Shown one piece after another: positions 23,807 through 53,790 of a stretch of DNA of 64,000 nt. A program made the translations under genes and the position numbers. The stretch covers positions 1 to 64,000 of the IMG/VR virus record IMGVR_UViG_3300017605_000956, one strand, 5' to 3'. The notes beneath the pieces were generated by a model. That model made no database searches, was not told the origin of the DNA, and was given only the letters and a program-made list of their open reading frames with translations. The stretch is from a virus. Position 1 is the stretch's first letter. Every line of letters begins with the position of its first letter.

Positions 23807-25018
23807 GTGGACGAGATGCAGAGAATGAAGCGAGCCCGAACGATGCTCCTTCTACACTACCCCTTCTTCGGCTACTTGGCGGCGAAGCTGAAGATCGTCG
23901 AATCGACGGCGTATCCGACGATGGCGACGGACGGGCGGCACATCTTCTTCAACCCGGACTTCACGAAGAAGCTGTCCGCGAACCAGACGCTCACGGGCAT
24001 CGCCCACGAGGTCATGCACAACGCCTGCGAGCACTTCAGCCGCGCCGGCTCGCGGGACCCCGAGAAGTGGAAGAAGGCGGCGGACTACGCGATCAACCTG
24101 ATCCTGAAGGACTCGGGCTTCGCGCCGATCGACATCCCCGGCGTCTTCTCGTGGCTGCTCGACGAACAGTGGCGCGGCATGACGGCGGAGCGGATCTGCG
24201 ACACGATGCCCAGCTCCCCGCCGTGCCCGAGCTGCGTGATCGTGAAGGTGAGCGGAGGCGGGCTGCCCGGGGCCGAGTCGAACGAGGATCCTGGGGAAGA
24301 CCCCCAGAAGCAGGACCCGACGGCCCCCGACCACAGCCAGTCGAAAGATCCCATCCCCCCGCCGGTCAACTGGAAGCGGGCGCTCGTCGAGGCGGCCCAG
24401 TTCGCCAAGATGCGCGGCAAGCTCCCCGCCGGGATGGAGGAGATGGTCGACGGCATCATCCACCCGAAGGTCAACTGGAAGCAGATCATCCGGAACTCGT
24501 TCGCCGCGGCGAAGAAGACGGACTGGACGTACCGCCGACCCAACAGGCGCTACGCCCACACGGGGATCGCGATGCCGGTGCCGTTCGGGTACCGCTCGTC
24601 GGTCGAGTGGTGGGGCGACTCCTCCGGGTCGGTCGGAGCCCAGGAATGGAAGATGGGGCTCGGGATCTGCGTGGACATCGCCAAGTCGATGCGGATTCCG
24701 ATCAACGTCGGGGTCTGCGACGCGCAGGTCCACCTGTTCGAGGAGAACGTGAAGGACAACGACATCGCGAAGAGAGTGAAGTTCCTCGGTCGCGGCGGCA
24801 CCGACTTCCGTCCGATCTTCGAGCACATCACGAAGGGCAAGCGCAAGCCCGACTGCGTGGTCGTCTGGACGGACGGCTATGGGACGTTCCCGCAGAACTG
24901 GAAGCCGAAGTACCAGGTCATCTGGGCGATGCCGGAGAGCTCGGCCACGGTCAAAGTGCCGTTCGGCCGGAAGCTCCTCATCGACATGAAGAACCTGGTT
25001 GGGGCGGTGAGCGCATGA
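23807..25018 (+). CDS. VWA-domain protein with N-terminal metallopeptidase-like domain (DUF2201-type)
   Basis: TMATDG, AHEVMH, DSSGS MIDAS, GRGGTDF, WTDG. Confidence 0.88.
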   Translation: MDEMQRMKRARTMLLLHYPFFGYLAAKLKIVESTAYPTMATDGRHIFFNPDFTKKLSANQTLTGIAHEVMHNACEHFSRAGSRDPEKWKKAADYAINLILKDSGFAPIDIPGVFSWLLDEQWRGMTAERICDTMPSSPPCPSCVIVKVSGGGLPGAESNEDPGEDPQKQDPTAPDHSQSKDPIPPPVNWKRALVEAAQFAKMRGKLPAGMEEMVDGIIHPKVNWKQIIRNSFAAAKKTDWTYRRPNRRYAHTGIAMPVPFGYRSSVEWWGDSSGSVGAQEWKMGLGICVDIAKSMRIPINVGVCDAQVHLFEENVKDNDIAKRVKFLGRGGTDFRPIFEHITKGKRKPDCVVVWTDGYGTFPQNWKPKYQVIWAMPESSATVKVPFGRKLLIDMKNLVGAVSA

Positions 25019-25728
25019 TCCCGATGCGATGCTGTATCTGTGGGGAAGCCGAACGGCTCCCCGGCACCGTCGTCTGCAAGAACTGCAAGGCGGAGATCGT
25101 GCTGACCGAGGGCCAGGCGGGCCTCAAAGCCATCGAGGCGCTCCACGAGCTGCCGTCGCATACGACGGTCGCGATCGGGTCACAGCCAGGTGGCCCGATG
25201 CTCGCGAAGGCGATCAAGTGCGAGAGCTGCGGGAAGTCGGAGGTGTACAACCCTCAGAAGCGCAAGGCCTCGTACTTCTGCGATCTCTGCGGCAAGCAGC
25301 TCTGCACCGCGTGCGCCGCCTACTGCAACCACAAGGACTGGAACTATCAGGCGAAGATCGTCTGCAAGCTCTGCCGCGCCGAGACGTCGCTGACCGGGCA
25401 GCCCGTCGAAGAAGTCGAGGGCTCGCTCCCCGGCCAGGGCGACGAGGTGAAGCGTGTGCCGAAGCCCCACTGCGGTCGGGCGACGTGCGTGGAGGACCCG
25501 GAAATGACCGCGCACCCGTGCCCGACTCCAGGCTGCGACCACAAGCCCTTTTGCGAGTGCAAGTGTCCGAAGTGCCGCGAGGCTGTTGCGTCGGGATTCG
25601 TGGAGCCCATGTTCGGCAAGATGCCGCCCGACCCGGATCCGGAGCCCCCGAAGCCGCCGCCGGCACCGGACGATGAAGACCTCGAAGACGAGATGGAAGC
25701 CCATCGTCGGGAGGCGGAGCAGGCATGA
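25015..25728 (+). CDS. multi-zinc-finger protein
   Basis: many CxxC pairs; two CKxCxAExxLT motifs. Confidence 0.7.
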   Translation: MIPMRCCICGEAERLPGTVVCKNCKAEIVLTEGQAGLKAIEALHELPSHTTVAIGSQPGGPMLAKAIKCESCGKSEVYNPQKRKASYFCDLCGKQLCTACAAYCNHKDWNYQAKIVCKLCRAETSLTGQPVEEVEGSLPGQGDEVKRVPKPHCGRATCVEDPEMTAHPCPTPGCDHKPFCECKCPKCREAVASGFVEPMFGKMPPDPDPEPPKPPPAPDDEDLEDEMEAHRREAEQA

Positions 25729-26045
25729 TCCTCAGAACGAAGTGGGCCGCCGCTTACGAGGCGGTGAAAGAGCGGATCGAGAAGACCAGACCGAAGAACG
25801 TGGTCATCTTCGAGCTTGTCTGCAAGGGGCTCTATCCGCCCGACGTGCGGATGAAGGACGACGCCGACAAATGCTCGGCATGCCGCGTGTCGTGGTACAG
25901 CTTCGAGCCCGCTTTCGGACACGCGAACGGGCTCCCGCACTTCGTCGCCTGGTGCCTTGAGCACCCGACCGAAGTGCGGGAGCGGTTCCCGGAGGCGGTC
26001 ATGGTGTTGACCGAGACGACGCTCATCAAGAAGGAGGCCGTATGA
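25725..26045 (+). CDS. hypothetical protein
   Basis: ATGA overlaps on both sides. Confidence 0.65.
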   Translation: MILRTKWAAAYEAVKERIEKTRPKNVVIFELVCKGLYPPDVRMKDDADKCSACRVSWYSFEPAFGHANGLPHFVAWCLEHPTEVRERFPEAVMVLTETTLIKKEAV

Positions 26046-26785
26046 AGACGATCGCGATGATCATGCTTCCTCTGGCTCTTCAGGGATACGAAGAGTCGTC
26101 CCAGAAGCTCGCGGACGATCTGGCGAAAGCCGATACCGCCCCGGCCAAGGTCGCTGTGGCGGACGAGTTCGTGAAGCTCGCGAAGAAGTTCCCGAAGCAG
26201 CGCCAGGAGGCGATCGACGGGGCCTCAAGCGCGTACCGCGCAGCGTGGCCGGATCTGGACCCGGTGTGGAAGATGAAGACGCGGGAGCGCCTGGCTCGGC
26301 TCTACGTCCCTCTCGCTCCGGTACCGGAGAAGAAGCTGCCTGTCGCTGGCTGGGGTGCGATCAGTGGCGCGAAGGCGGACTCGTTGCGCGTCCACTCAGG
26401 ATCCGCATCGCTCCACCTGAAGATCGCGAGGAAGGATGGTGGGCTGGCCGACATGGGCGGCACCGACTTCTTCGAGGTGAAGCCGGGCAAGGAGCTCGAG
26501 CTCTCCGCCTGGGTGCTCACCGATGGGACGGATGGGCTCGACGACAAGTTCGGGTTCGTCCTCTACGATGCTGCGGGCAAGTCGCTCGTGACGAAGGAAC
26601 TCGTCGCGCCGAAGGACATTCCGGCCTGGACGCGGCTGTCTGATCGGTTCGAGGTTCCTGCCGGCGCCGTGAAGGCGAAGATCGGCATCCTCGTGTCGTC
26701 GAAGGGCGGCGATCTCTGGTGGGACGACTTCTCCGTCAAGATCGACGGCAAAGAGCAGCTCCGGAATGGGGGCTTCGAGAAATGA
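26042..26785 (+). CDS. exported protein with carbohydrate-binding (CBM4/9-like) domain
   Basis: signal-like N-terminus; VHSGSASL, VKPGKELELSAWV, LWWDDFSV, NGGFE. Confidence 0.7.
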   Translation: MKTIAMIMLPLALQGYEESSQKLADDLAKADTAPAKVAVADEFVKLAKKFPKQRQEAIDGASSAYRAAWPDLDPVWKMKTRERLARLYVPLAPVPEKKLPVAGWGAISGAKADSLRVHSGSASLHLKIARKDGGLADMGGTDFFEVKPGKELELSAWVLTDGTDGLDDKFGFVLYDAAGKSLVTKELVAPKDIPAWTRLSDRFEVPAGAVKAKIGILVSSKGGDLWWDDFSVKIDGKEQLRNGGFEK

Positions 26786-26991: not shown

Positions 26992-26992
26992 C

Positions 26993-27765: not shown

Positions 27766-28131
27766 ATGACCATGACCACGATGCTCGGCACGTTTGGGGT
27801 AGCCGAAGAGGAGATCGGGAGATTCAACCGGACGCTCCCGCCTCAGACCAAGGTGAAGTACGACGCCCGGTGGGAGCTGGGGCTCGAAGTCGTGCGGTGG
27901 TTCCACTACCGCTACAACGTCGACCACACGTTCATCGGCCGGATCAACTCGGTGGAGGAGCTGCGGAAGAACATGGTCCCGCGGTACCAGGCCTACTTCA
28001 TGTCGAGAGGCGTCCCGAAGAAGATGTTCCCGGCCCTCGACACGATCCTCATTGAGCCGCGGATCCAGGAGTTCTGCGAGATGTTCAAGGACGTCCTGGC
28101 GGAGATCGAACTTCTCCGGGAGGCACAATGA
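27766..28131 (+). CDS. hypothetical protein with C-terminal AExxL tag
   Basis: GGAGG RBS; ...FKDVLAEIELL. Confidence 0.7.
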   Translation: MTMTTMLGTFGVAEEEIGRFNRTLPPQTKVKYDARWELGLEVVRWFHYRYNVDHTFIGRINSVEELRKNMVPRYQAYFMSRGVPKKMFPALDTILIEPRIQEFCEMFKDVLAEIELLREAQ

Positions 28132-28683: not shown

Positions 28684-28947
28684 ATGTCGCAGGTGAAGAT
28701 CAACGGGTCGAAGCTGAGAGAGGTTCGGATGGGGAAACGCATGACGACCAAGGAGCTCGCGGAGCGGTCGGGTGTGTCCCCCCGGACGATCGACCGCATC
28801 GAATCCGGGGCGCTGAAGGAGGGCGTGAGGGAAGGAACCCTCTTCGCCATCACGAAGGCGCTCGAGGTCGAGCTGGACGTTCTGATCGAGTCCGCGCCGA
28901 TTCCCGCGGAAGTCGGAGAGAAGAGTGAAGACAAGAAAACCGCGTAA
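28684..28947 (+). CDS. XRE/Cro-CI family HTH regulator
   Basis: LREVR..MTTKELAERSGVSPRTIDRIESG. Confidence 0.92.
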   Translation: MSQVKINGSKLREVRMGKRMTTKELAERSGVSPRTIDRIESGALKEGVREGTLFAITKALEVELDVLIESAPIPAEVGEKSEDKKTA

Positions 28948-29449
28948 CGCCGCTCTTGAATTCGCCAAGGGCTTCACGGTCCTCGTGGCGCGGGAGGCGC
29001 TGCGGCAGGGCCGCAAGAGAGTCCTGAACCCGGCGAAGTTCGAGAAGTGGGCGCGCAGCGCGATCCGGTCGGGCGGTGGGGACCCCGACCGGATCGGGGA
29101 GGCCGTCGGAAGGCGGCTTCACTGGATGGTATTCCCTCAGAAGGCGAAGTGGCAGCAGGACGTGGAGTACTGCATCCGTCGCGGGCGTTCGTTCGCCCGC
29201 CGGCATAAGGTGCTGATTGCCGAGCAGGTGCTGACGGGAGACGCGGAGAGGACCCAACTTGAGATGGCAGCGGAAGAGATGGTCCGCATCCTTGGGCCGA
29301 AGAAGGTCTTGGACCTTCTCGGCAAAGGGAAAGAGAGTAGGGCGTGCGTAAGTCGAAGTCGGAAGCGTTCGAGGATCTCGCGGCGCCGCTTGGCGAGTTC
29401 GTGTTCGAGCTGCGGGCGTCGTGGGGGACGAAAGCGATCGGCACGGTGA
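28925..29449 (+). CDS. hypothetical protein (AEQVLT)
   Basis: ORF; 3' end overlaps the next gene. Confidence 0.55.
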   Translation: MKTRKPRNAALEFAKGFTVLVAREALRQGRKRVLNPAKFEKWARSAIRSGGGDPDRIGEAVGRRLHWMVFPQKAKWQQDVEYCIRRGRSFARRHKVLIAEQVLTGDAERTQLEMAAEEMVRILGPKKVLDLLGKGKESRACVSRSRKRSRISRRRLASSCSSCGRRGGRKRSAR

Positions 29450-29664
29450 GGGACCTGTCGTGGGGGCTGAGGAATGGTCTTCGCCTCGTCGTGGTGTCAC
29501 CGGAGCCGGAGCTGGCCCTGGCGTTCATGATGACGGCGGTGGTCTTGAACGTGTCGGCTGACAAGCTCGACCGGCCGGATCCGATCGTTGAGCGGTACGC
29601 GCAGGACTTTATCGAGAAGCATCGGAGAGAATTTGCGGAGGCGATCCTGACGTGGCAGGCATAA
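29344..29664 (+). CDS. hypothetical protein with C-terminal AEAILT
   Basis: ORF; shared tag. Confidence 0.6.
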   Translation: MRKSKSEAFEDLAAPLGEFVFELRASWGTKAIGTVRDLSWGLRNGLRLVVVSPEPELALAFMMTAVVLNVSADKLDRPDPIVERYAQDFIEKHRREFAEAILTWQA

Positions 29665-30134
29665 GCAAAATGAATGGGAAGCCGCTGATCATCGAGGGCT
29701 TTTGCGATTTCGACCAGCCGCTTCGGCGAGTCGAGATCGGGAAGCACACGACGATCGAGGCGTTCGAGCGGTCGAAGAAGCGCGCCCAGTCCGGGGGCGA
29801 GTCGACCTATGGCTGGGTCTGGGCGGAGTTCCCTGATCCGCAGAGCGTCAACCCCATTCCGATGCGGCCGTGGAAGATGCACGAGGTCATCGTGGGAAGC
29901 CACCAGGCGGGCTGGCTCGCGGCGAGGGATCGCGCCCATGCGGAGCGTCCCGGCGTGTGCTGGTGGACGGCCACGCCATCCTGCTGCTCGAAGCTCGTCG
30001 CCGTTCCGCTCGGGGAGCATCAGAAGTCGGTGCGGCATTTCTTCTACACCGCCATGGAGTTCCAAGAGCTGACGGTGAGGCTGTGGCCCTGGATGAAGCC
30101 TTTGATCGCGGAGGAGGTCTTGTGCGAAAAGTAG
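29652..30134 (+). CDS. hypothetical protein with C-terminal AEEVL
   Basis: ORF; shared tag. Confidence 0.6.
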   Translation: MAGISKMNGKPLIIEGFCDFDQPLRRVEIGKHTTIEAFERSKKRAQSGGESTYGWVWAEFPDPQSVNPIPMRPWKMHEVIVGSHQAGWLAARDRAHAERPGVCWWTATPSCCSKLVAVPLGEHQKSVRHFFYTAMEFQELTVRLWPWMKPLIAEEVLCEK

Positions 30135-30505
30135 AGCCTCAGATCCAGCTCGCCAATTACTACCTCGCGCTGTGCTACTCGCTGTGGGCGAGGTACGAGT
30201 GGCTCGGGATCAACCTGAACTACGCGGGCATCCAGAGGGTCATGGAGCGTTTGGCGCTGGGGATACCGCTCCGGTGGCAACGTGATGGGGAAGCGCCGAA
30301 GGACATGGAAGAGCGGCTCGCGCAACATCTCACCTGGCTTGTGGTGTCGCGCGGCCGAAAGGTCGAGGACAGCGTCGTGAAGGACCTGCGCGTCGAAGCT
30401 GCGGCGTTCGTCGCGAAGCATCGAGAGCTGTTCGCGGAGATCAAGCTCGCCGGCGCGAGCAAAGACCTGAACAAAGAATTGGCGGAGACGGGGAGCAGGG
30501 TATGA
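30122..30505 (+). CDS. hypothetical protein (HRELFAEIKL)
   Basis: GAGGAGG RBS, GTG start. Confidence 0.65.
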   Translation: MRKVEPQIQLANYYLALCYSLWARYEWLGINLNYAGIQRVMERLALGIPLRWQRDGEAPKDMEERLAQHLTWLVVSRGRKVEDSVVKDLRVEAAAFVAKHRELFAEIKLAGASKDLNKELAETGSRV

Positions 30506-30831
30506 GCAGGATGACGCGGATCCAGGTGATCGCGATCCTCGAGAAGAGGATCAAGGACTTCGTCGAGTCCGCTACCAACGAGAAGATGTGGCCTCCGTTG
30601 TCGCTGACTTCGGGCCAGCTCTCGAATCAGGAAGCGATGATCGGGCTGATCATGATGAGGCTGTCGAAGCCCCGGTTCCTGAGAGAGCATTTCACGGATC
30701 AGCACGTCCCGCAACACTGCAACCTGTGTCAGACGTTCATCTCGAACTACCGGTATGAGTTCGAGGGCAAGGCCAGAGAGTTTCTGAGCACGAACCGTGA
30801 GCTCTTCGCGGAGCTCAACCTGTTGGGCTAA
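30502..30831 (+). CDS. hypothetical protein (NRELFAELNLL)
   Basis: ATGA overlap. Confidence 0.65.
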   Translation: MSRMTRIQVIAILEKRIKDFVESATNEKMWPPLSLTSGQLSNQEAMIGLIMMRLSKPRFLREHFTDQHVPQHCNLCQTFISNYRYEFEGKAREFLSTNRELFAELNLLG

Positions 30832-30853: not shown

Positions 30854-31357
30854 ATGAGAGAGATGGCAGAGCCGAAGTGTCCGAAGGGGTGCCGGGCGCC
30901 CGTTGCGCGCCTGGCGGGGACGGATGGCTACAAGCGATACCAATGCGGAAACATGGACTGCCTCGAGACGTGGGATGTTCCCATCGAGAAGAGACGGTCA
31001 GATACGCCGGAGCCCGAAGCTCCGGAGACTCAGGAGGACGACGTGGCGAAGCCCAAGCTGACGTGCCAGTACAACTGCGGGCACAAACCCTTCTCGTCGG
31101 AGAAGTGGAAGCTGAAGCACGAGGAGGCTTGCGCGAAGGAGAAGGACGGCTCCGTCGAAGAGAGCCCGGATCTCCCCCACACGCCGGCGACGGAGACGGC
31201 GAGGAGCGCCATGGGCTCGGTGATCGACTCCCTCAGGAACAAGCGCGAGTCGATGATCCGGGACAACGAGGAGATCCAGAAGATCATCGCGGAGCACCCC
31301 GACATCAGGAAGATCGACGCCGCGATCAAGCTGCTGGAGTCGGTTCAGGATGTGTAG
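30854..31357 (+). CDS. zinc-finger protein
   Basis: CPKGC..YQCGNMDC and C2H2-like CQYNC..HEEAC. Confidence 0.65.
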   Translation: MREMAEPKCPKGCRAPVARLAGTDGYKRYQCGNMDCLETWDVPIEKRRSDTPEPEAPETQEDDVAKPKLTCQYNCGHKPFSSEKWKLKHEEACAKEKDGSVEESPDLPHTPATETARSAMGSVIDSLRNKRESMIRDNEEIQKIIAEHPDIRKIDAAIKLLESVQDV

Positions 31358-31640
31358 GCTCTGCGACGCCGAGTGCGCGCTGACCGGCGAGATGGAGCGG
31401 GTGATCCTCGAGAACACGAACCCGGGTCACAACAAGCAGTACACCGTCTTCATCGAGCTGGTCGAGGACAACGGCACCGGCAACGTCCGGGTCATGGGCC
31501 GCTGGGGACCTATTGGCGAGAAGTGGACGAGGTCCCAGGAAAAGGGTCGCTTCGTGGCGATCTCGAGTGCGCGGCAGGCGGTCTATGACCTGGTGCGAGA
31601 AAAAGAGGGCCGTGGCTACAAGAGGAGGATCTGTCCGTGA
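31350..31640 (+). CDS. WGR-domain protein
   Basis: HNKQYTV, RWGPIG, KEGRGY. Confidence 0.8.
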   Translation: MCRLCDAECALTGEMERVILENTNPGHNKQYTVFIELVEDNGTGNVRVMGRWGPIGEKWTRSQEKGRFVAISSARQAVYDLVREKEGRGYKRRICP

Positions 31641-31927
31641 AGCCGACGACCACGCGCACCCTCGCCTCCCGCTTCGTTCGGTTCTGCCTGGATGAGGCGG
31701 AGGCGAGGGGCGTTTGGCCCCGTGATCTGCGGTTGGCTTTTGTCGAGCGGGAGTTCTCGGACTTCGGCTCGAAGAATTTGGTGAACCGGTTGACGAACGT
31801 CTACCGACGCATTCTTTACGGGAGGCCGGGAAGCCACCTCGAGGACGAGCTGAAGGTCCGGGTGGAGTTTTGGATGGGCCTCCCAGAGAACAGGGAGTTC
31901 TTGGCGGAGATCGTGCTGACGAGATAG
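31637..31927 (+). CDS. hypothetical protein (NREFLAEIVLTR)
   Basis: GAGGAGG RBS; GTGA overlap. Confidence 0.65.
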   Translation: MKPTTTRTLASRFVRFCLDEAEARGVWPRDLRLAFVEREFSDFGSKNLVNRLTNVYRRILYGRPGSHLEDELKVRVEFWMGLPENREFLAEIVLTR

Positions 31928-31929: not shown

Positions 31930-32250
31930 ATGCCGAAAGAGAAGGCGACGCACACGAGGTTTCGGACCTACTGGTCGCTCTCGTCGACGGGCCAGCGGTC
32001 GACGTGCAGCGATTGCGGCCGGCGCGAGCTGCGGGTCGGGTACCAGTGCCGCGGCATGGACTACGGGCACGGCTTCTGCCAGCGGGTGCGCTGCTGGCTG
32101 TGTGCCGGGATCAAGAGAGTCGAGAAGAAGACGATGACCGATATGTGGACGCTCTGCCTCTACTTCGCGGTGATCGAGAACCAGCTCTGCAAGCCCTGTC
32201 GCGCGGAGAACGAGCTGCTTGGCGAGATAAAGGTCATGGTGTCCTCGTGA
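31930..32250 (+). CDS. Cys-rich zinc-finger protein
   Basis: CSDC, CWLC, CKPCRAENELL. Confidence 0.6.
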   Translation: MPKEKATHTRFRTYWSLSSTGQRSTCSDCGRRELRVGYQCRGMDYGHGFCQRVRCWLCAGIKRVEKKTMTDMWTLCLYFAVIENQLCKPCRAENELLGEIKVMVSS

Positions 32251-32621
32251 GCTGCGCTCTCTGTCACCGAGGGGTCGAGACGCTCGCGCTGAACATGAAC
32301 GACCTCTCGCGCGGACGCCAGCTTGCCGAGAAGCTCGGGGTGAAGTGGGGCGAGAGTGCAGCGGTCTGTATCTGCAAGCTATGTGTTGCGGAGTTTGAGT
32401 TTACGGGAGAATGGACCGTGATCTGCTCGGCTTGCAAGAAGGGGTTCGCCAAGGTGCCGCCGCTCTGCGATAGCTGCGGGCAGCCCACGTGCGAGGATTG
32501 CGCTGCGAAGGAGATACCGCCTGGTCGGTGGGAGATCAGGCACAGCGCGGTGCTGCGGGCCGGAGATCGAATCCGGATCTGCAAGAACTGTCGAGCGGAA
32601 CGAGTGCTTACGGAGGACTGA
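32247..32621 (+). CDS. Cys-rich zinc-finger protein
   Basis: six CxxC; ends CKNCRAERVLTED. Confidence 0.65.
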   Translation: MSCALCHRGVETLALNMNDLSRGRQLAEKLGVKWGESAAVCICKLCVAEFEFTGEWTVICSACKKGFAKVPPLCDSCGQPTCEDCAAKEIPPGRWEIRHSAVLRAGDRIRICKNCRAERVLTED

Positions 32622-33157
32622 TGGAGACCGCCGAGATTCAGATGTCGCCCAGGGCTGCACGTACCGAAGCCGAGAGGTATTCACGGTGCCGGGACCTGAC
32701 GAAGACCGACCGCCTGATCATGAAGGCGTACAAGTCGATCGCGCACGGGAGCCGGATCATCGACCTCAAGAAGACGATGGAGATTGCGGGCTTCGACGAC
32801 AACGGGCGGCCGCGGCTGGCGATCTGCTGCGCCAATGCGACGCGGGTCGACGTGCGCTGCTGGCCGGGGTCGACGGAGTTCAAGTGGAACCATCGGTACT
32901 ACGACCGGAGCTCGATGAGGATCGTGGGCTTTGGGAACAACAGGACCTCCACCGTCGATGGGTGGGCGACGACGCCGTACATCCCGCCGTACATCCGGCG
33001 CGCTCGGATGAGCCGGTACTTCGTGCTGTGGGAGGCGACGTGGCACAACGTTCCGGCGGGAGATCCCTACCTGCTGGAGCAGATCGACCAGAACCTCTTC
33101 CGCGTGGTCGCGGCGTGGGACATCACGCCGCTCGAGGCGGCGGTGCTGAGGCGATGA
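32621..33157 (+). CDS. hypothetical phage protein
   Basis: YFVLWEA, DPYLL, AAWDITPLE. Confidence 0.7.
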   Translation: METAEIQMSPRAARTEAERYSRCRDLTKTDRLIMKAYKSIAHGSRIIDLKKTMEIAGFDDNGRPRLAICCANATRVDVRCWPGSTEFKWNHRYYDRSSMRIVGFGNNRTSTVDGWATTPYIPPYIRRARMSRYFVLWEATWHNVPAGDPYLLEQIDQNLFRVVAAWDITPLEAAVLRR

Positions 33158-33495
33158 GAAGAAGAACGATCAATCGGCCTCCGGTCCACACGTTCTCCCG
33201 CCGTCTCGTCCACGAGGCGAACGAGTACGCGAAGAGGGTGGGCCTGAAGCAGATCGACAAGGACCTGCATCTCCCGGCGTGGGAACAGCTCGAGGATATT
33301 ATGGCATTGGGCGACGCCTGGAAGGTGGCTGACGTGCTGGCTCTGCACTTCACGAAGGTCTACGATCCGACCGGGAAGGTGGAGCGGCACGTGGAGGTCA
33401 TGAGGAAGTTCGTGAGCGACAACAAGGAGCTGGTGGCCGAGGTCGTGTTGACCTATGTGCCTCGACCCAAGATCAAAGGGAGGAGATTTCCGTGA
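33154..33495 (+). CDS. hypothetical protein (NKELVAEVVLT)
   Basis: ATGA overlap. Confidence 0.65.
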   Translation: MRRRTINRPPVHTFSRRLVHEANEYAKRVGLKQIDKDLHLPAWEQLEDIMALGDAWKVADVLALHFTKVYDPTGKVERHVEVMRKFVSDNKELVAEVVLTYVPRPKIKGRRFP

Positions 33496-34270: not shown

Positions 34271-34720
34271 ATGGGGAAGTTCAAGGCGTCGTTCGAGGGG
34301 TACTCGAACGATCTGGTCATGATGGTCGGGATGTCGATGAACGCCTGCGTGCGGAAAATCTGCGAGGAGCAGAGCTGCAAGCCCGCGAAGTCGTCGTTCC
34401 TCGTGCCCGAGACGGCGAACCCCGAGTGGCTACGGAACAACATCGCCTGGCAGGTCGCCACGGCGATCTTCGCGAAGCCCACGGAGAAGCGCAACGTCAA
34501 CGAGCTGCACCGCAAGGTGCTCGAGGTCTACGCCGACGTGATCGAGGAGTGGATTCAGGAGAACAAGGCGAACCTGGCGGAGATCGGCTTCCTCTTCACG
34601 CCAGAGGACACCGTGATCCAGACCCAGTCGCCTCCGGTGCAGCACTTCGCCCCCGCGGCAGCGCCTGCGGCGCTGCCGCCGGGGATCAACGCCATCGTTT
34701 GCAGAAGGGGACGGAGATAG
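34271..34720 (+). CDS. hypothetical protein (NKANLAEIGFL)
   Basis: AGGAGG RBS. Confidence 0.7.
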   Translation: MGKFKASFEGYSNDLVMMVGMSMNACVRKICEEQSCKPAKSSFLVPETANPEWLRNNIAWQVATAIFAKPTEKRNVNELHRKVLEVYADVIEEWIQENKANLAEIGFLFTPEDTVIQTQSPPVQHFAPAAAPAALPPGINAIVCRRGRR

Positions 34721-36007: not shown

Positions 36008-36277
36008 ATGGACGCAATCACAGCATCTCAGTCTCCCGCTATCGACGGAGTGCTGCTCTTCGACCTGTTTTCGATCAGGACGAGCGAGCCGTTCCTGGTG
36101 ATGTACGGGATCTCCGCCGCCTTCGGGTACAAGCCCACCGCGGATCAGGTGAAGCTGATCCGGAAGAACATGGGCAACCGCGCCATCTTCGAGAAGTGGG
36201 AGAAGCTCGGCCAGGAGATGAAGGCCGGGACGCGCCCCTTCCCCGAGTGGCTGACGAAGGTGGAGGCGGTGCGATGA
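36008..36277 (+). CDS. hypothetical protein
   Basis: RBS; overlap with the next gene. Confidence 0.6.
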   Translation: MDAITASQSPAIDGVLLFDLFSIRTSEPFLVMYGISAAFGYKPTADQVKLIRKNMGNRAIFEKWEKLGQEMKAGTRPFPEWLTKVEAVR

Positions 36278-36543
36278 ACGGAAAACTGTTCCAGAACTTC
36301 TCGGGCGTCATCCCGCAGCACGCCCAGGTGAAGGGGTCGGGCAATACGATGTCGAACGCGACGTCGGACACGCCCTTCTTGACGCTCGGGCTCTACTCGG
36401 ATTCTGACGGCTCGGGGACCGTCCCGTGGCTGCTGTGCCTGCTCCAGGGCGGCCAGGTGGTCTCGGTTCGGGCGACTGACGTGTGCATCGAGATGACGGA
36501 TGAGATGAAAAAGTCGCTGGCCGAAGTGGTGCTGAAGTCATGA
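36274..36543 (+). CDS. hypothetical protein (SLAEVVLKS)
   Basis: ATGA overlap. Confidence 0.6.
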   Translation: MNGKLFQNFSGVIPQHAQVKGSGNTMSNATSDTPFLTLGLYSDSDGSGTVPWLLCLLQGGQVVSVRATDVCIEMTDEMKKSLAEVVLKS

Positions 36544-36758
36544 CGTTCTCGAGGCCGCTTCCGGGGATCGTGAACATCAACAGGGAGCCTGAAGCCGTGG
36601 CCGTACTCGGGGTCGAGTCCGGGTCGAGCGGAGGCATCGCGATCGTGTGCCTCAACGGCAAGGGCCAGATATTCACGATGCCGCCCGGCTCGGTGAAGGT
36701 GCTGGTGGATAAAGAGCTCCGCGAGTGTATCGCGGAAGCAGAGTTGCAGAAACCCTAG
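36540..36758 (+). CDS. hypothetical protein (CIAEAELQ), similar to 36274
   Basis: ATGA overlap. Confidence 0.6.
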   Translation: MTFSRPLPGIVNINREPEAVAVLGVESGSSGGIAIVCLNGKGQIFTMPPGSVKVLVDKELRECIAEAELQKP

Positions 36759-39421: not shown

Positions 39422-40017
39422 CGCTACCGGTATCGGTTGTGATCCCCCACCTGAAGACTCGCGAGGAGTTCTTCCACACGGTCTGCCTGCCCTCGGTTGA
39501 GGCGGCCAGGCCCGCGCAGATCATCGTGGTGGATCGCGAGGGTGGGGCTGCGGAGAAGCGCAACGAAGGGGCCGCCAAGGCTCGCTTCCCGTACCTGATC
39601 TTCCTCGACGACGACGCGGAGCTCGAGCTGGGCGCTCTCGATGTCGCGCTCCACTGGCTCGGCGTGGACCCGGGCGCAGCGTTCGCCTACGGCGACACGC
39701 GCTTCGTATCGCACGTGCATCCCGTGGGGGAGTTCACCAAGGTCGCCGTCGGGTGGAACGCGGAGACGCTCCGCCGATCGAACTTCATCGACGTGACGGC
39801 GCTGATCCGGACTGAGAAGTTCCCTGGCTTCGATGTGAGAGTGAGGCGGTTCCAGGACTGGGATCTCTGGCTCACCATGGCGGCGCGCGGCGATCGCGGG
39901 GTGTACTGCCGGCGCGCGCTCCACCGCACCCACCGGCTGTCGAACGAGAGGATTTCGGAGAGGGAAGACTACGACATGAATTCGGAGTTCGTGAAACGTA
40001 AGCACGGTATTTCGTAG
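39418..40017 (+). CDS. GT2 family glycosyltransferase
   Basis: VSVVIP, RNEG, FLDDD, FQDWDLWL. Confidence 0.9.
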   Translation: MTLPVSVVIPHLKTREEFFHTVCLPSVEAARPAQIIVVDREGGAAEKRNEGAAKARFPYLIFLDDDAELELGALDVALHWLGVDPGAAFAYGDTRFVSHVHPVGEFTKVAVGWNAETLRRSNFIDVTALIRTEKFPGFDVRVRRFQDWDLWLTMAARGDRGVYCRRALHRTHRLSNERISEREDYDMNSEFVKRKHGIS

Positions 40018-40039: not shown

Positions 40040-41683
40040 ATGACCGAGGTCAAGGACGCAACCCCGCGAGAAGTGCTCGCGGAGGTCAACTTCGAGGAGA
40101 TCGAGCTCTCGAAGCTGATCGAGTCGCGGAGGAATCCGCGAAAGGCATTCGACGCGACGGCCATGAGGGGGCTGGTCGAGTCGATCAAGAGGTACGGGGT
40201 GCTCACGCCGCTGATCGTGAGGGCGGTGGGAAACGACGGGAAATTCGAGATCCTGGCTGGCGCCAGGCGCAGCAGGGCATCGAGAGAGGCGGGCCTCGAA
40301 AAGGTTCCGTGTCGCGTCATCGAGGCTGAGAACGATCTCGCCTTGGACGTGATCGTCGTCGAGAACCTCCAGCGGCAGAACGTCCACCCCCTCGAGGAGG
40401 CGGACAGCTTCGCTGAGATCCTCGAGCTCTCCGGTGGCGATCTCCATGGCCTGTGCAACAAGGTCGGCAAGGACAGGCCCTACGTCATGAAGCGACTGGC
40501 CCTCAACAAGCTGGTCGATTCGGGCAAGAAGATGTTCCTCCAGGGCAAGATGTCGGAGGGACACGCGATGCTGATCTCGCGGCTCACGCCCGAGGACCAG
40601 AAGGACGCGATGGAGTACCTCGAGAACGACGAGCCTTCGGTCACGATCATGCGGGAGTGGATTGAGTCGACGCTGATGCTCGACCTCGCGAAGGCGGGCT
40701 TCTCGAAGACGGATCCGGCGCTGGACAAGAAGGCCGGTCCCTGCACGACGTGCCCCAAGCGGACTGGCTGCTCGAAGGACCTCTTCGACGACATCAAGAG
40801 CGGGGACCGCTGCACCGATGTCGAGTGCTTCCAGGGCAAGATGCGGGCGCACATCACCCAGCTCGAGAACGCCCTCCGCGGGAAGGGCTACAAGGTGTAC
40901 GGCGTCTACGAGAGCTATCAGTCGAAGCCCGGGAAGGGCACGCTGGCATCGGGCCAGTGGGTCGAGATCAAGAAGAAGGACTTCTGCGACAACGCGGCGA
41001 AGATGATCATCCTCGACCAACCCCGTGCCGGCCACTACGTCGACGGATGCGCCAACCTGGAGAACTGCAAGATCCACGGGCGGACCGGGATGCACGGCTC
41101 GAACTCCACCATGCAGGAGCAGACGCGAAAGCAGGTCCTCGCCAACAAGATCGAGGCCGAGGTTCGCCTTCGGACCTTCAAGCTGATCTACGAGAAGCAG
41201 GAGAAGCTGACCGTCTCCGACAAGAGGCTGCTGGCCGAACACTGCTTCAGTCGCCTCTGGTTCGGAGCCAAGGTGCGGCTCTGCCGGGCGCTGGGCATCG
41301 AGCCCAAGGTGTCGAAGATCGGCGGCAAGGACTACGAGACGCCCTTCTCGAGAGTGGTGACCGAGGCGGTGAAGGAAGAGACGCTCGACAAGCTGCTCAT
41401 CTCTCTGGCGTGTGGCGGCGATCTCGACCCGAACTACCGGCACGCCGAGAACATCGACTTCTACGCCAACAAGCTCAAGCTGGACGTGAAGGCCATCGAG
41501 ACGGAGGTCAAAGCGTCCTTCGAGAAGAAGTCGAAGAAGATGCCCAAGGAGAAGCCCATCGAGGCTGAGGGCAAGAAGCCGAAGAAGGCCAAGGCGAAAT
41601 CTGTGGCGAAGGCCCAGACGAAGCCCATGGAGGTCGATCCCCTGGAGCACAGCGAGGGCATGGGGGATGACCTTCCGGAGTAG
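40040..41683 (+). CDS. parB: ParB/Spo0J family protein
   Basis: NPRK, GVLTPLIVR, ILAGARRSRA, ENLQR, HTH. Confidence 0.9.
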   Translation: MTEVKDATPREVLAEVNFEEIELSKLIESRRNPRKAFDATAMRGLVESIKRYGVLTPLIVRAVGNDGKFEILAGARRSRASREAGLEKVPCRVIEAENDLALDVIVVENLQRQNVHPLEEADSFAEILELSGGDLHGLCNKVGKDRPYVMKRLALNKLVDSGKKMFLQGKMSEGHAMLISRLTPEDQKDAMEYLENDEPSVTIMREWIESTLMLDLAKAGFSKTDPALDKKAGPCTTCPKRTGCSKDLFDDIKSGDRCTDVECFQGKMRAHITQLENALRGKGYKVYGVYESYQSKPGKGTLASGQWVEIKKKDFCDNAAKMIILDQPRAGHYVDGCANLENCKIHGRTGMHGSNSTMQEQTRKQVLANKIEAEVRLRTFKLIYEKQEKLTVSDKRLLAEHCFSRLWFGAKVRLCRALGIEPKVSKIGGKDYETPFSRVVTEAVKEETLDKLLISLACGGDLDPNYRHAENIDFYANKLKLDVKAIETEVKASFEKKSKKMPKEKPIEAEGKKPKKAKAKSVAKAQTKPMEVDPLEHSEGMGDDLPE

Positions 41684-41782: not shown

Positions 41783-42307
41783 ATGAACGAGGACGAAAGG
41801 CACGAGGTGTTCAAGTGGCTCCTGAAGAAGAGCTTTTTCTACCAGGGGCTAGTTTGGTGTTACCTACGCGGAAATGATGTCCCAGCGATTCTCGGAAAGA
41901 TGCAGGTCTGGGAAAAGAACCCCGGCCGGAAGTTCTTCGACGAAGACGGCGGCGACATCATGGTGGGGGACCTGATCATCGAGGTGAAGAGCATCGGGCT
42001 TGAGTTCACCTGCGTAGACGACTACCCCTACGGAGACGTGGTCGTCGACAACATCGGGCAGCACGACGAGAAGGTTCGCAAGGGCTACTGCCCGAACATC
42101 TACGTCTTCGTGTCTCAGGTTACCGGCGCGATGATCTGGACCTCGGTGAAGGAGTGGAAGCACGAGTGGCAGAAGAAGGTAATTCCGCACAGGTGGACAA
42201 AGGAGATGAGGCACGTTTACACCTGTTGGAAAAGCCACTGCAATCCGATCAGGGCGCTGGTGAGTGACCTGAAAGACATCTTGGGAGATCAGGCGGTAGC
42301 AGGATGA
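41783..42307 (+). CDS. putative PD-(D/E)XK nuclease
   Basis: DGGDI...IEVKS. Confidence 0.6.
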   Translation: MNEDERHEVFKWLLKKSFFYQGLVWCYLRGNDVPAILGKMQVWEKNPGRKFFDEDGGDIMVGDLIIEVKSIGLEFTCVDDYPYGDVVVDNIGQHDEKVRKGYCPNIYVFVSQVTGAMIWTSVKEWKHEWQKKVIPHRWTKEMRHVYTCWKSHCNPIRALVSDLKDILGDQAVAG

Positions 42308-42612
42308 ATGCGGCGTGGCTGGATGGCGAGTTCTCTCGCGGAGGGCCGGAATGGAAGCTGGTGATCCGGTGGACCCATTTCGTCGCGAGGAAGAAGCAGG
42401 GAATCACTTCCAGCGAGAGGCACACGTGGAACAAGGGCGTGGTCAACGTCTCGGTCAAGTTCATGGCGCAGGCAATCAAGAAGGGTGAGATCGTGCTCCT
42501 GCCCGAAGCGTTCGGGCGGGGCATGAGCACTTGGGAGCTGCTGAGGGCGTGGTGGCCGGAGTTCATGCAAACAGAAAAGGAGCTGATCGCAGAGCTGGTG
42601 TTGACGCGGTAG
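42304..42612 (+). CDS. hypothetical protein (EKELIAELVLTR)
   Basis: ATGA overlap. Confidence 0.65.
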   Translation: MNAAWLDGEFSRGGPEWKLVIRWTHFVARKKQGITSSERHTWNKGVVNVSVKFMAQAIKKGEIVLLPEAFGRGMSTWELLRAWWPEFMQTEKELIAELVLTR

Positions 42613-44439: not shown

Positions 44440-44885
44440 ACAAAGGCGGTACCTGGCCTGAGACAAAGTACTGGCGCGAGGCGATGGAGGCTGCTCAGAA
44501 GAGGCTCGGCAAGGTCAACCTCTTCAACGGGACCAATGGGACCGGGAGCGGCTACTACGTGGCTCACGACTCACGGGCGATGTGCTGCTCGCAGTTCGTC
44601 CCGTCGGCCAGGAACTCTCAGGGGCCACGCAAGGTGAAGGAACACCTGAGGACCGCGGTCCATTTCAGGACGTGGTGCGTCGGGAATCGGGAGAAGGCCC
44701 TGGAGCTGTTCCCGGAAGTGAAGCCGCTGTTCGCGGAGTACGAGCTGACGAAGGACGCGATCCGTCCTGGCGTCTCGTCGACTACGTCGATCGAGATGGT
44801 CGGATCGAAGCTCACAATCGTCAGGACGACGGTCGATGCGTCGAAGGCGAAGTTCACGATCAGGGATGGAGGGAGGAAACCTTGA
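44436..44885 (+). CDS. hypothetical protein (PLFAEYELT)
   Basis: GTGA overlap. Confidence 0.6.
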   Translation: MNKGGTWPETKYWREAMEAAQKRLGKVNLFNGTNGTGSGYYVAHDSRAMCCSQFVPSARNSQGPRKVKEHLRTAVHFRTWCVGNREKALELFPEVKPLFAEYELTKDAIRPGVSSTTSIEMVGSKLTIVRTTVDASKAKFTIRDGGRKP

Positions 44886-47068: not shown

Positions 47069-49582
47069 CGACCTGTATGGCCTGTGGGAAATCGCTGAAG
47101 AAAGGCGTAGACTATCCGCGGGAGACGACGGAGATCCACGGGATCGTCGTCACGCCGGAGACGCCAATCCTCTGCTGGGACCCGGACGCCTGTATCAAGC
47201 GCGCTCGTGAGAGGCGCGACTTGCCAGGGTCCGTGAGAAAGGAGCTGTTCAAATGACCAAGTACTTCTTTTTCGGAAACGTGCGTTCCGAAGGAAGCCTC
47301 GACGATCAGGATCGTGTGACGCGGGGCAAGGGTTTCGTGGTCGCCGGCGGCAACGCGAAGGACCACAAAGAGACGGTCGAGATCACTCGCCTGGTGCAGG
47401 AGGGCGTCCAGATGGACGGCATCCACCACGTCGAGGAGATCATCAAGGACGTGGTCAAGAAGGTGAAGGGATGAGCTGCAAGAAGAGGAAGATCCAGCAC
47501 CGCCCCTGCCGATGGAAGGGCGGCTGGATGTGCTTCAACTGCGGCCGTCGGTGGAAGAACTATCCGAGCAACGTGGACCCGAGAAAGGTGAAGGCCTAGA
47601 TGGCGACCAACGACGAAGTCGAGCAGTCGTTCCTGCGCCAGCTTCCGCCGCGTGTCTTGCGGTGGCTCGAGGACTACCACCGCTGCGCGCCCGAGCTGAA
47701 GGATCTCAACTTGGCCCGCCTACTGGTCAACACCTACGGACATGGGTTGGAAGACGGCGCGAAAGCTAAACCCAAGGAAAGGAGCTAGGCCGATGTCGAT
47801 GCCGATCGTGAAGTACGACAAGAAGGGCAGACTGATCTGCCCGACCTGCGAGATGACGATTCCGATCCCGGAGACGCACTGGCTCGGCAAGGGGCCGGGG
47901 ACGTGTCCAAACACCCAGTGGCGCGGAGGTCTGCACCGCTTCTGGATCACGGAGGACGTGTCCTACGCGGTGAACGACATCCGCTCGAAGAGCAATCCCG
48001 ACGGCGAGCAGAAGCGCCTCCTCAAGACGTTCGAGGAGATCCCGCGCGAGATCCGGCCGGAGCAGGAGGGCGGAATCGTCCATGGATGAGCGGTGGACCG
48101 TCATCCTGGAGTTGGCGCCTCCTACGAAGAACAAGCTCGAGGCCGCGGAGCGCGCCCTGAAGGGTGAGGACTACGGGGCGGAGTACGTCGCCACGAAGAA
48201 GAGCGTCCTTCTGTCCGTCGACGTGAGCGGTCAGTTCAAGGCCATCGTGAAGATGTTCCTCGTCGGCCGCCTGATGACGCAGTTCTACGTCGATCAGAGC
48301 GGGTCGTACCACTGGGAAGCGCCTCCCGGCGTGGAGATGAACCAGGGAGAGCGGCTCTTCTTCGTACTCGACGAGTTGGAGGAAGGCGGGGGCAGAGCTA
48401 AGGTTACGTTGGTAGGGATGCGATGAGCCTGATGAAAGGGTCGATCGGAGTGGCGCGTCGGATCCACTATCTCGACCAGGTGGATCGGCCTCAGTTCGGC
48501 GTGTGGGCGAGCTCGGCCTGCGGGTCCTGGGCCGGCTCGGTGAAGGTCGTGCCGGAGAAGGTCCCGGTGTCGTGCGGCGCGTGTCGAAAGCTCGACCCGT
48601 CGAAGATCGAGACGAAGGACATCTCGAACCGGCCTTACGAGCCGGGCAAAGGCGTTTTCTAGGATCGAGGGGGACATCATGGATATTGGCGATCTTGCGG
48701 TCTTTCCAGCGGGGCTGCCGATCAAGGATCGGAGCAGGGCCTTCCAGTACGAGATCGTGCGGCGATGCGAGTGCGGGAAGGTCGACTGCTGGATTGGACG
48801 ATTGACGTCGGGCTTGGAGATGCACTTCCAGGCCAGCAAAGCCCGCATCGTGAAGACGAAGGAGCAGCGCGCCGAGGAGCTGCTGGTCTACGGACCTGAA
48901 GACGAGCTTGAGGAGAACCCGGGTCTATGATCTGCGACGAGTGCAACGAGCGGGTGAAGACGCTTCACCAGAACTTCTACGGAGCCTACTGCGACAAGTG
49001 CGTGGGAGGTGCCGATGACCGGGCGAAGAAGCTCTATGCGGAGCTCCGGAAGGAGGAGCTGCTGTCGGGACCTGAGTTCTTCACCCTGAAGGACTTCGAG
49101 CGGTTCATGATGAAGTTCTCGCTCTACTTCCTCGACAACATGAGCCGGGAGAGCACGAAGCGGATCCGGGGGACGATCCCCCAGCTCCTCCAGCCGGTGT
49201 TCATGTGCTTGCACCTGAAGGACCTCGTGGTCGAGAAGATGCCGTTGAACTACGTGTCGTCGATGAAGTCGGAAGGACGGGACCGGTTCCACTACGGGGC
49301 GACCTACCAGTTCAAGAGGGATGTCCCGAAGGCAGTGGTCATCAAGGCGATGGAAGACGCAGGTTTGATACGAGCAGGGGAACGAGAGGAGGGTTCATGA
49401 CGGGTTACAGGATCGCGGTGTACTGGGAGAAGTTCGGAGGGACGGAAGAGGGCTCGATGAACGACGAGCGGCAGATCGTCGTCGACCGGAAGCCCTCGGG
49501 TCAGGAGATGCGAGATGTCGAGGACGCGCTCCACCTGAAGCTGATGGAGATGGGACTCAAGAAGCAGGGGGACACGCGATGA
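47065..49582 (+). CDS. run of small hypothetical and zinc-ribbon genes (47065-47256, 47253-47474, 47471-47599, 47600-47788, 47793-48089, 48082-48426, 48423-48662, 48679-48930, 48927-49400, 49397-49582)
   Basis: continuous ATGA-coupled ORFs, many with CxxC. Confidence 0.6.
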
Positions 49583-51676: not shown

Positions 51677-52129
51677 ATGGGCAAGTACGCGGAGGGGACG
51701 AGCGTCCCCGTGGAGAGAAGTCAGACCGAGATCAACCGGGTCCTGGCGAAGTTCGGCGCGGACCAGTTCGCGCAGGCCTCGAGCACGACGCCTCCGGCGG
51801 TCCTGATCGGGTTCAGGGCCAAGGGCAAGCTGATCAAGTTCCACCTGCCCATGCCGACGGGAAAGGACTTCCGGGGCACGGAGCTCCAGATCGAGAAGCA
51901 GTTCCAGGCGGAGTGCCGGCGCCGGTGGCGCGCGCTGCTCCTCGTGCTGAAGGCGAAGCTCGAAGCGGTCGACTCGGGCATCACCACGTTTGAGCAGGAG
52001 TTCTACGCCCACATGGTCCTGCCTGGCGGGATGACGGTCTTCGAGTCGACGAACAAGGAGGTCTCGCGGGCGATCGAGACGGGAACGCCTCCTTCGTTCA
52101 TGATCGGCTTCGACGGGGGAAAGAAGTGA
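51677..52129 (+). CDS. hypothetical phage protein
   Basis: YAEGTSVPVERSQTEI...RWRALLL..KAKLEAV..FEQEF. Confidence 0.75.
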   Translation: MGKYAEGTSVPVERSQTEINRVLAKFGADQFAQASSTTPPAVLIGFRAKGKLIKFHLPMPTGKDFRGTELQIEKQFQAECRRRWRALLLVLKAKLEAVDSGITTFEQEFYAHMVLPGGMTVFESTNKEVSRAIETGTPPSFMIGFDGGKK

Positions 52130-52911: not shown

Positions 52912-53131
52912 GCGCCACAGCGGGTGCAGCCGGCCGTCCTCGATCGGGAAGAAGCCGATCCGGGTCGGCGGCTACGACCCGGAGAAGAAGCGCGACACGA
53001 CCGGCGAGTCGGTGCGCGCCCTGGATGGGACCGGTCTGACGGAGCGCCCGGCTCCGGTCGTCTAACTTTTCTGGCCTGGTATCGGGGGGTGGGGCGGAGC
53101 CCCACCCCCCGACCGAAGACGCGAGGAGAAT

Positions 53132-53539
53132 ATGGATCTGCCCTGCCCGTACTGCCGGGGGTCCGGCAAGTTTCGTCACGAGCGTCCGAAGAACGTCTCG
53201 GACAAGTGGTGGTTCGACATGGTCGGTCAGAGGATGGCTTGCCCCCTGTGCAAGGGCGCGGGCAAGATCGTCCGAGGCGCGGACTCGCTGGTCGTGGACA
53301 CCGGCCTGATCTTCATCAAGAACCTCGACCGCAGGGTTCTGGTGGGATGCCCGGACCAGACCTGCACCCTCTGGGTCGATGCGACGGACGCCTTCGGCCG
53401 GCGCGAGATGAGCGCACCCACCGGGCGCGCGAAGACCGTGGCCGACACGCCCCAGGCCGACTTCGCGGTGAAGTGCAAGAACGGCCACGACGTCGTTCTC
53501 TCGATGACTCCGGGAGCTGCTCGGTGGAAGCCCCATTGA
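53132..53539 (+). CDS. DnaJ-type zinc-finger protein
   Basis: CPYCRGSG, CPLCKGAG. Confidence 0.65.
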   Translation: MDLPCPYCRGSGKFRHERPKNVSDKWWFDMVGQRMACPLCKGAGKIVRGADSLVVDTGLIFIKNLDRRVLVGCPDQTCTLWVDATDAFGRREMSAPTGRAKTVADTPQADFAVKCKNGHDVVLSMTPGAARWKPH

Positions 53540-53790
53540 TCGGCATCGCGAAGTCGCTGGTGAAGCACCTCGAGGAGGCTGGGGTCGAGGTCACTCCCGA
53601 TCTCGACTTCGCGGTCGAGGCCTGCAGGGGCTCCCTCAAGAAGGGGGTCCGGGAGTTCATGGACCTGGCCGAGAAGACGTTCACGAATCGGATCAGGCCG
53701 AGGCGGAAGGCGCTGGGCGTCTTCAGGAAGTTCCGGGAGGACGTGAAGGTGTGGCTGGCGGAATTGGTGCTCACGGAGAGAGAGGTCTGA
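53536..53790 (+). CDS. hypothetical protein (VWLAELVLT)
   Basis: TTGA overlap; shared tag. Confidence 0.6.
   Translation: MIGIAKSLVKHLEEAGVEVTPDLDFAVEACRGSLKKGVREFMDLAEKTFTNRIRPRRKALGVFRKFREDVKVWLAELVLTEREV

Follow-up and report, generated by a model that had tools for sequence, protein, structure and literature searches.

A recurrent peptide tag on small early-region proteins of an uncultured soil virus: a candidate docking helix

We analysed 64,000 nucleotides of a viral genome (IMG/VR virus record IMGVR_UViG_3300017605_000956, positions 1 to 64,000; hereafter, the window), which make up the first 64 kb of one contig of 78,478 bp from an uncultured soil virus. In the block at ~25-54 kb, 21 proteins carry a short tag of 11 residues with the pattern [C/N/H]-[K/R]-x-[C/L]-h-A-E-h-x-[L/F]-[T/S], often with Gly as the next residue. 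The tag is selected as a peptide, is modular and conserved within a clade of related viruses, and forms a separate helix in one confident structural model. We tentatively propose, as a candidate explanation with somewhat less than even prospects, that it serves as a modular docking helix, specific to this clade, for one shared partner.

Results

The tag is enriched in the early block and near C-termini

The initial annotation of this DNA had reported 21 tag sites, each of which translates at its coordinates as reported. To determine whether the tag is enriched and biased towards C-termini, as that annotation had suggested checking, we used composition-preserving shuffles of the called proteins (2000 shuffles for AExxLT) as the null. 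The motif lies far above chance and the terminal bias was confirmed: AExxLT was observed 10 times versus 0.47 times expected, with a maximum of 4 in 2000 shuffles, and AExxL within 20 residues of a C-terminus was observed 15 times versus 1.26 expected. When the sites were aligned on AE, K or R was present at position -4 in all 14 helical and all six zinc-knuckle sites (20/20). This position is absent from the pattern used in the initial annotation, so it had no part in the selection of the sites.

Within the 25-54 kb block, the refined motif, [KR]-x3-A-E-x2-[LF], has 25 matches (1.03 expected), of which 14 lie no more than 20 residues from a C-terminus (0.16 expected); in the remaining genome, it was found three times versus 1.21 expected, i.e. 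at chance level. Among the 40 block proteins of at most 160 residues, 18 (~45%) carry it. Position -5 is N or H as a cap, Pro is found at -3 in two carriers, and Gly follows T/S in internal copies. Tags are mostly C-terminal and otherwise internal or, in one protein, N-terminal; the distance to the C-terminus ranges from 0 to 18 residues or more, and the terminal residues vary.

The ParB-like protein encoded at 40040-41683 has three matches to the refined motif in 547 residues (residues 13, 95 and 398) versus ~0.06 expected. These matches may be coincidental because at least the match at residue 95 falls in conserved ParB-N sequence.

Tag carriers

The tag occurs in the two structural contexts that had been proposed for it, i.e. 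after a zinc knuckle and as a zinc-free helix. The carriers are listed below; loci with the prefix L are metagenomic sister loci and P0006 is a homolog from a profile search, both described further on.

25015..25728, +: zinc-finger protein with two tags, CKNCKAEIVLT (25075-25107) and CKLCRAETSLT (25363-25395); 4-nt overlap with the stop of the VWA gene
25725..26045, +: small protein in which the tag is decayed (RFPEAVMVLTE) but intact in the L101 and L104 orthologs (IRQLIAEETLAG)
27772..28131, +: helical carrier, tag KDVLAEIELL 4 residues before the C-terminus; four orthologs and an AlphaFold2 (AF2) model
28925..29449, +: gene with an internal tag (RRHKVLIAEQVLTG), missed by the composition-based gene caller
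29344..29664, +: helical carrier, tag HRREFAEAILT 3 residues before the end; ortholog P0006
29670..30134, +: carrier, tag MKPLIAEEVLC 2 residues before the end
30122..30505, +: carrier, tag HRELFAEIKLA 17 residues before the end
30502..30831, +: carrier, tag NRELFAELNLL 1 residue before the end; ORFan
31350..31640, +: WGR-domain protein (Pfam WGR, E=1e-7) with an N-terminal tag (MCRLCDAECALTG); the L100 ortholog begins MCKVCKAEGALLG
31637..31927, +: carrier, tag NREFLAEIVLT 1 residue before the end
31930..32250, +: cross-brace zinc-finger carrier, tag CKPCRAENELL 9 residues before the end
32247..32621, +: zinc-finger carrier with two tags, CKLCVAEFEFT internal and CKNCRAERVLT 2 residues before the end; weak Pfam FYVE match (E=1e-3 / 2e-4)
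33154..33495, +: carrier, tag NKELVAEVVLT 13 residues before the end
34271..34720, +: carrier, tag NKANLAEIGFL 41 residues before the end; the L104 ortholog has NRAKLAEIGFL, with tag columns 82% identical versus 39% for the body
36274..36543, +: carrier, tag MKKSLAEVVLK 1 residue before the end
36540..36758, +: carrier, tag LRECIAEAELQ 2 residues before the end
42304..42612, +: carrier, tag EKELIAELVLT 1 residue before the end; ORFan
44484..44885, +: carrier, tag VKPLFAEYELT 44 residues before the end
48679..48930, +: carrier, weaker tag TKEQRAEELLV 13 residues before the end
53524..53790, +: carrier, tag VKVWLAELVLT 4 residues before the end

The open reading frame (ORF) at 28925-29449 is a real gene because a tagged ortholog is present at L104:12997-13476. 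It overlaps the called start of the gene at 29344, the true start of which is probably near 29389, as in the ortholog P0006.

The tag is constrained as a peptide

The initial annotation had argued that selection acts on the tag at the protein level, and codon use, frame restriction and GC drift in the sister locus L103 all agree with this. The codons at A, E, T and K/R of the tag track genome usage; K and R at -4 alternate via unrelated codons (AAG versus CGN/AGG), and the tags differ more at third codon positions than at the first two. In L103 (56% GC; ~64% in the virus of the window), the tag codons follow the GC content and read TTA/CTA/ACA/GCA/GAA with the residues unchanged. A degenerate DNA pattern of the tag matched 14 times on the + strand and once on the - strand. 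Thirteen of the + strand matches are in the coding frame, and the remaining one (29219) falls in the tagged ORF 28925-29449 that was missed by the gene caller. Within the tags, short, shallow metagenome contigs showed three variants, of which one is synonymous at K(-4) and the other two fall in a single codon at a variable position.

These observations speak against a signal at the DNA level, i.e. a ribosome-binding site, a promoter, or a start-associated or recombination boundary that lies in the 3' ends of genes by chance, as does the finding that the ribosome-binding sites of downstream genes are distinct from the tag. The tags do concentrate near gene ends in tight operons, and the Leu at position 5 has a mild excess of G-ending codons (CTG/TTG), both of which such a signal would explain. 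Nevertheless, the DNA is not conserved irrespective of frame and codon position; a nucleotide-level start-associated or boundary sequence was on this ground ruled out, and we regard a DNA-level signal of any of these kinds as extremely improbable.

The tag is conserved in sister viruses

Relatives of the VWA-peptidase encoded at 23807 form a clade at 42-83% identity, several of them on contigs of 77.6-79.5 kb. Five metagenomic sister loci, L098, L100, L101, L103 and L104 (56-77% VWA-peptidase identity), include DNA downstream of the VWA gene. A search of related viral contigs had been suggested in the initial annotation, and the tag recurs in all five loci, with about ten copies each in L103 and L104, five in L101, four in L100 and two in L098 (range 2-11). 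These sister tags are of both forms, are encoded by small + strand ORFs and are mostly located a few residues before the stop. The gene order is as in the window, i.e. Dam methylase, homologs of the proteins at 19326, 20741 and 21916, ATPase, VWA-peptidase and the double-tagged zinc finger. Several carriers have recognisable orthologs in the sister loci, and in eight ortholog groups the tag columns have 57% pairwise identity versus 37% for the bodies (p=3e-6).

In one sister locus, the module is joined to an enzyme:

L104:15584-16894: homolog of the 31350 WGR protein; cross-brace zinc finger that ends in the tag variant CKLCQGEKVLS, WGR domain and ATP-dependent DNA/RNA ligase core (EKMNGKR), 436 residues

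The earlier observation that recognisable enzymes lack the tag thus holds within the window and fails in L104, where this fusion shows that the module is attached to an enzyme too. In the window, the WGR protein (31350-31640) is unfused and retains just half a knuckle, and we recognised no adjoining ligase.

The zinc-type carriers share a cross-brace finger

The zinc-type carriers of the virus and its sisters align as one eight-Cys (C8) cross-brace finger with the consensus C-x2-C-x~10-C-x2-C-x4-C-x2-C-x~14-C-K-x-C, i.e. with eight ligands in interleaved spacing. They resemble PHD and FYVE fingers in ligand number and in cross-brace spacing. In profile comparisons, the likeness is less clear-cut: against the PDB, the zinc-type profile matched the Jade-1 PHD (E=7e-5), rabphilin-3A (E=3e-4) and several FYVE domains. 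They differ from these fingers in their C8 ligands and in scores under the Pfam thresholds, with Pfam FYVE matched weakly by 8 of 13 members at a best score of 21.8 bits, below the cut-off of 27.8. Likewise, the C4-H-C3 ligand pattern of PHD fingers was not found, the fifth ligand being Cys in most members, and the FYVE motif (R/K)(R/K)HHCR was present in no member of the alignment, where the corresponding positions read YHCAKC, YKCVYC, YFCDLC and WPCERC.

Because the PHD/FYVE matches end at the last CxxC of the zinc-type carriers, the AExxL[TS]G helix lies outside these domains and is an addition specific to these viruses. From the alignment and the general features of the fold, this helix would start inside the last knuckle in treble-clef fashion. 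A zinc-binding anti-sigma domain (ZAS, zf-HC2) was considered but not retained; two sister tags read H-x3-C-x2-C, but PF13490 was outside the 25 families most matched by the 13 members. When IMG/VR was scanned with a DNA pattern of the zinc form, 14 isolated matches at chance level resulted, mostly ordinary zinc-ribbon-type CxxCG knuckles.

In the six orthologs of the double-tagged 25015 family, C6, C9, C21, C24, A26, E27, L30, C117, C120, A122 and L126 are invariant. After the second tag (25363-25410; alignment columns ~140-165), the sequence LTGQPVEE..K.LPG is kept in five of the six members and has diverged in L100; a third Cys-rich module, PHC..A.CV...C.C.C.KC, which is untagged, comes next in three members.

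The helical carriers have dissimilar bodies

With the last ~20 residues removed, the bodies of the helical carriers were no more similar to each other (mean z -0.06) than to untagged small proteins of the block (mean z 0.06; Mann-Whitney p=0.95), and an all-against-all BLAST gave little similarity outside the tag. A few weak body similarities were detected (31637 and 53524, z=4.3; 30122 and 44484, z=3.7). Except for the WGR domain at 31350 and the weak FYVE matches, the carriers matched no Pfam, PHROG or NCBIfam family. For the carriers at 42304 and 30502, no homolog was found among 5.8 billion proteins, and a protein atlas returned only chance-level neighbours. An exhaustive profile search with the helical tag module among 1.84 billion representatives recovered one true ortholog, P0006, which shares 76% identity with the 29344 protein and has the same last 14 residues; it was not located in IMG/VR or in JGI metagenomes. 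Two further matches in this search were rejected as unrelated tandem-repeat proteins with scores summed over copies.

AF2 modelling of five orthologs of the 27772 family gave four helices with a predicted local distance difference test (pLDDT) score above 90 for residues 30-119. In this model, the tag is a last helix of its own (106-118), which is set off by a break from the long helix before it and begins exactly at K(-4). Such a helix agrees with the N/H cap at -5, the Pro at -3 and the Gly after T/S in the tag sequences. The family is without conserved Cys/His pairs, and searches of its model with Foldseek and VIA-align gave no solved fold above noise (best Z 5.1). For the 29344 carrier, a model from two sequences had a pLDDT of 51 and was unusable.

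Possible docking handle or remnant of a common ancestor

Because K/R, A, E, T/S and one Leu are fixed on many bodies and are more tightly conserved than these bodies, we read the tag as a docking handle. In the zinc form, the helix continues directly from the last C-K-x-C knuckle of a PHD/FYVE-type cross-brace finger; in the zinc-free form, the same helix ends otherwise dissimilar small proteins. The helix can also precede the WGR domain or a WGR-ligase. In both forms, it may serve as a common handle by which about half of the small accessory proteins encoded in the early/replication block are attached to a single partner, viral or host. The initial annotation had proposed a modular signal that docks onto a hub. 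The modular peptide element is borne out by its conservation across the clade above that of the carrier bodies; from the same conservation pattern, we infer that the tag binds a partner and that this partner is shared.

Several observations weigh against a docking handle. The zinc-type carriers, which align as one C8 finger, are genuine paralogs, and the earlier description of the carriers as unrelated thus applies to the helical subset, which has no detectable sequence similarity, and not to the zinc subset. Only one helical carrier, the 27772 family, was modelled confidently. Moreover, some tags have decayed: the 29344 ortholog at L104:13517-13828 reads AS..LS, and the 25725 protein has PEAVMVLT versus LIAEETLA in its L101 and L104 orthologs. 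The Glu is therefore lost in some orthologs, and the tag is thus dispensable for some carriers. Finally, there are intermediates between the two forms, i.e. CKLHLAEKVLT in L103, in the 30502 protein a CNLC that precedes the zinc-free tag (NRELFAE) by 22 residues, and Cys/His remnants retained in the 25725 family. Because of these intermediates, the carriers could share a common zinc-finger ancestor, and the helix could have been retained for folding.

Taken further, this descent would make the carriers a diverged multigene family that arose from one small zinc-finger gene by tandem duplication, in which some members lost the cysteines, the helix is the slowest-evolving structural remnant and there is no common partner. 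The tandem arrangement and similar sizes (70-150 residues) of the carriers fit such a family, as do the paralogous zinc fingers, the half-degenerate forms and the two weak body similarities. By contrast, body similarity overall is at the control level, the 27772 family combines a confident four-helix model with a lack of conserved Cys/His pairs, and in the WGR protein the tag is N-terminal to a known unrelated domain. Moreover, polar or small residues predominate at the fixed positions, which is atypical for a protein core, and the tags of one genome share only ~51% nucleotide identity and have therefore not undergone recent conversion. On balance, we consider that a multigene family without a common partner is a rather unlikely, if serious, explanation.

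The adjoining ATPase/VWA-metallopeptidase pair

Immediately upstream of the first tagged gene, two untagged proteins are encoded:

22583..23707, +: AAA+-type ATPase, MoxR-like by context; Walker A GDTGIGKT, Walker B YFLDEF; phrog_1297 'ATPase' (E=1e-55); orthologs in L098, L100, L101, L103 and L104
23807..25018, +: HExxH metallopeptidase with a VWA-like domain and a complete metal ion-dependent adhesion site (MIDAS); Pfam DUF2201_N (E=8e-43) and DUF2201 (E=3e-17); AHEVMH, DSSGS, GGT, TDG

The ATPase had no sequence match in Pfam, NCBIfam or the PDB, and we use the label 'MoxR' solely for its partnership with a vWA protein. In the VWA-peptidase, the HExxH motif and the MIDAS (DSSGS..T..D) are intact, and H67, E68, H71, D271, S273, S275, T332 and D356 are invariant in 34 clade members. 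Its match to phrog_1314 (E=8e-85) carries the label 'HNH endonuclease', a name that is copied in many phage records. This label looks like a propagated annotation error because the protein has HExxH, a MIDAS and the DUF2201_N/DUF2201 domains.

The pair had been named as a candidate hub for the tag. In support of this idea, the double-tagged zinc-finger gene directly follows the VWA gene in 6/6 clade members, with a 4-nt stop overlap in four. However, the pair, which is present in 765 phage records, occurs essentially without tags outside the clade: 104 distant pair loci (1.49 Mb) have 0.07 C-terminal tags per 10 kb versus 2-10 in the clade, and three deposited phages that carry the pair are without the tag. 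The tag therefore characterises this virus clade and is no general client code for the pair; within the clade, the two may be linked. A predicted complex of the VWA-peptidase with a carrier of the 27772 family, Mg and Zn scored 0.00, which counts neither for nor against binding. In the literature, we found no function for the phage ATPase/VWA pair.

One way in which the pair could act on the tag is as a processing or turnover machine. The tag would then mark proteins for the adjoining ATPase/VWA-metallopeptidase, with the MIDAS capturing the invariant Glu and HExxH cleaving, or for a host protease, and so restrict early proteins in time or activate them. Ligands bind to MIDAS sites via an acidic side chain, and the h-A-E dipeptide of the tag resembles T4-type h-x-E cleavage sites. 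The intact and invariant motifs of the VWA-peptidase and the position of the double-tagged gene are in line with this mechanism, as is the proposal that vWA domains capture a substrate peptide that a MoxR ATPase then remodels (PMC7159879). On the other hand, the pair is essentially untagged elsewhere, as described above; tags also occur internally, N-terminally and twice per protein; and the distance to the C-terminus and the last residues vary, unlike in C-degrons. We therefore regard processing or turnover as improbable. For the same reasons, i.e. distances of 0-18 residues or more, variable last residues and internal or N-terminal copies, an ssrA-like C-terminal degron was rejected.

The docking handle and the pair could also be combined in a hub-and-spoke arrangement, in which the ATPase, the VWA-metallopeptidase and the double-tagged zinc finger would be a core that captures, remodels or cleaves ~20 tagged accessory proteins, either via binding of the Glu at the MIDAS or via tag-tag coupling of the kind described below. 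This is a speculative and, in our estimate, unlikely arrangement; if true, all accessory proteins of the virus would come under one switch.

Relation to known systems

We found no published account of a phage tag of this kind. The closest described principle is, by analogy, coupling by the effector-associated domains (EADs) of MoxR-vWA and related conflict systems, small terminal adaptors that are proposed to couple diverse proteins to a core (Kaur, Burroughs, Iyer and Aravind 2020, PMC7159879). Like the tag, EADs are small, non-enzymatic, mostly helical, lineage-specific and located at the N- or C-termini of many proteins. The layout is also similar: EAD copies lie beside a MoxR-vWA core, and in the virus the genes for a MoxR-like ATPase and a vWA protein adjoin one for a double-tagged protein, with at least 18 further tagged proteins encoded downstream. 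The tag is likewise repeated at the termini, N- or C-, of diverse proteins encoded by one genome (21 tagged). By contrast, one EAD copy is fused to a core component, but in the virus neither the ATPase nor the VWA-peptidase is tagged, only the adjoining downstream gene. Moreover, EADs are independently folding domains of cellular defence systems, whereas the tag is a viral helix of 11-13 residues (~50 residues with the zinc finger), and the carriers described here are without known effector domains.

The two genes of the pair are also found in the same order in N4-like Gamaleyavirus (phrog_1297/phrog_1314; gp24/gp25), in the early/middle region by replication genes; the difference is that the pair elsewhere is not followed by tagged proteins. 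A further comparison can be made with poxvirus ankyrin proteins, in which a C-terminal PRANC/F-box with a ~40-residue fold plugs many accessory proteins into the host hub Skp1/Cullin. The likeness lies in a shared terminal module on variable viral accessory proteins; the virus described here is prokaryotic and its module is an 11-residue helix.

In virology, no pool of proteins of unknown function is larger than that of the small early phage proteins, which are usually handled singly. Here, ~45% of the small early-region proteins of one lineage share one conserved peptide handle. If this handle has a single partner, finding it would assign a common pathway to ~20 ORFans per genome, and the virus would be the first phage example of the tag-based coupling of many accessory proteins that has so far been proposed for cellular conflict systems. 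The tag may also inform on the widespread, uncharacterised phage ATPase/VWA-metallopeptidase pair.

Genome context and other features

The viral genome is probably complete, and circular or terminally redundant, because the ends of the contig carry an exact direct repeat of 141 bp (whole genome 1-141 and 78338-78478). Gene calling gave 116 genes in the window and 139 in the whole genome, all except one on the + strand and frequently with 4-nt stop/start overlaps. Near-identical sequence is present in soil and rhizosphere metagenomes from several studies, and no RNA data set is listed among the sequencing runs with viral sequence. Near-identity and protein searches of deposited phages gave no close relative; the ParB query gave no match in IMG/VR, and a scan of genome contigs gave no match.

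In the ~25-54 kb block, replication-type genes are interspersed with ~40 small ORFs. The replication-type genes include:

35024: PD-(D/E)XK protein
36776: AAA_24 protein
40040..41683, +: ParB-like protein
42642: DUF3987 protein
49579: C5 methylase

Among the proteins scanned, we found no match to a terminase, a portal or an HK97-type capsid. The two largest proteins outside the early block (17294-18595 and 57359-59101, both +) are without a Pfam or PHROG family. A GT4 glycosyltransferase, with matches that include the 'GT4-conflict' model, is encoded at 2738-4021 (+), followed by glycosyltransferase paralogs at 4018-4932 and 4929-5810 (+), and there is a weak GT2 match at 39418-40017 (+). This number of glycosyltransferase genes is unusual for a 78-kb virus.

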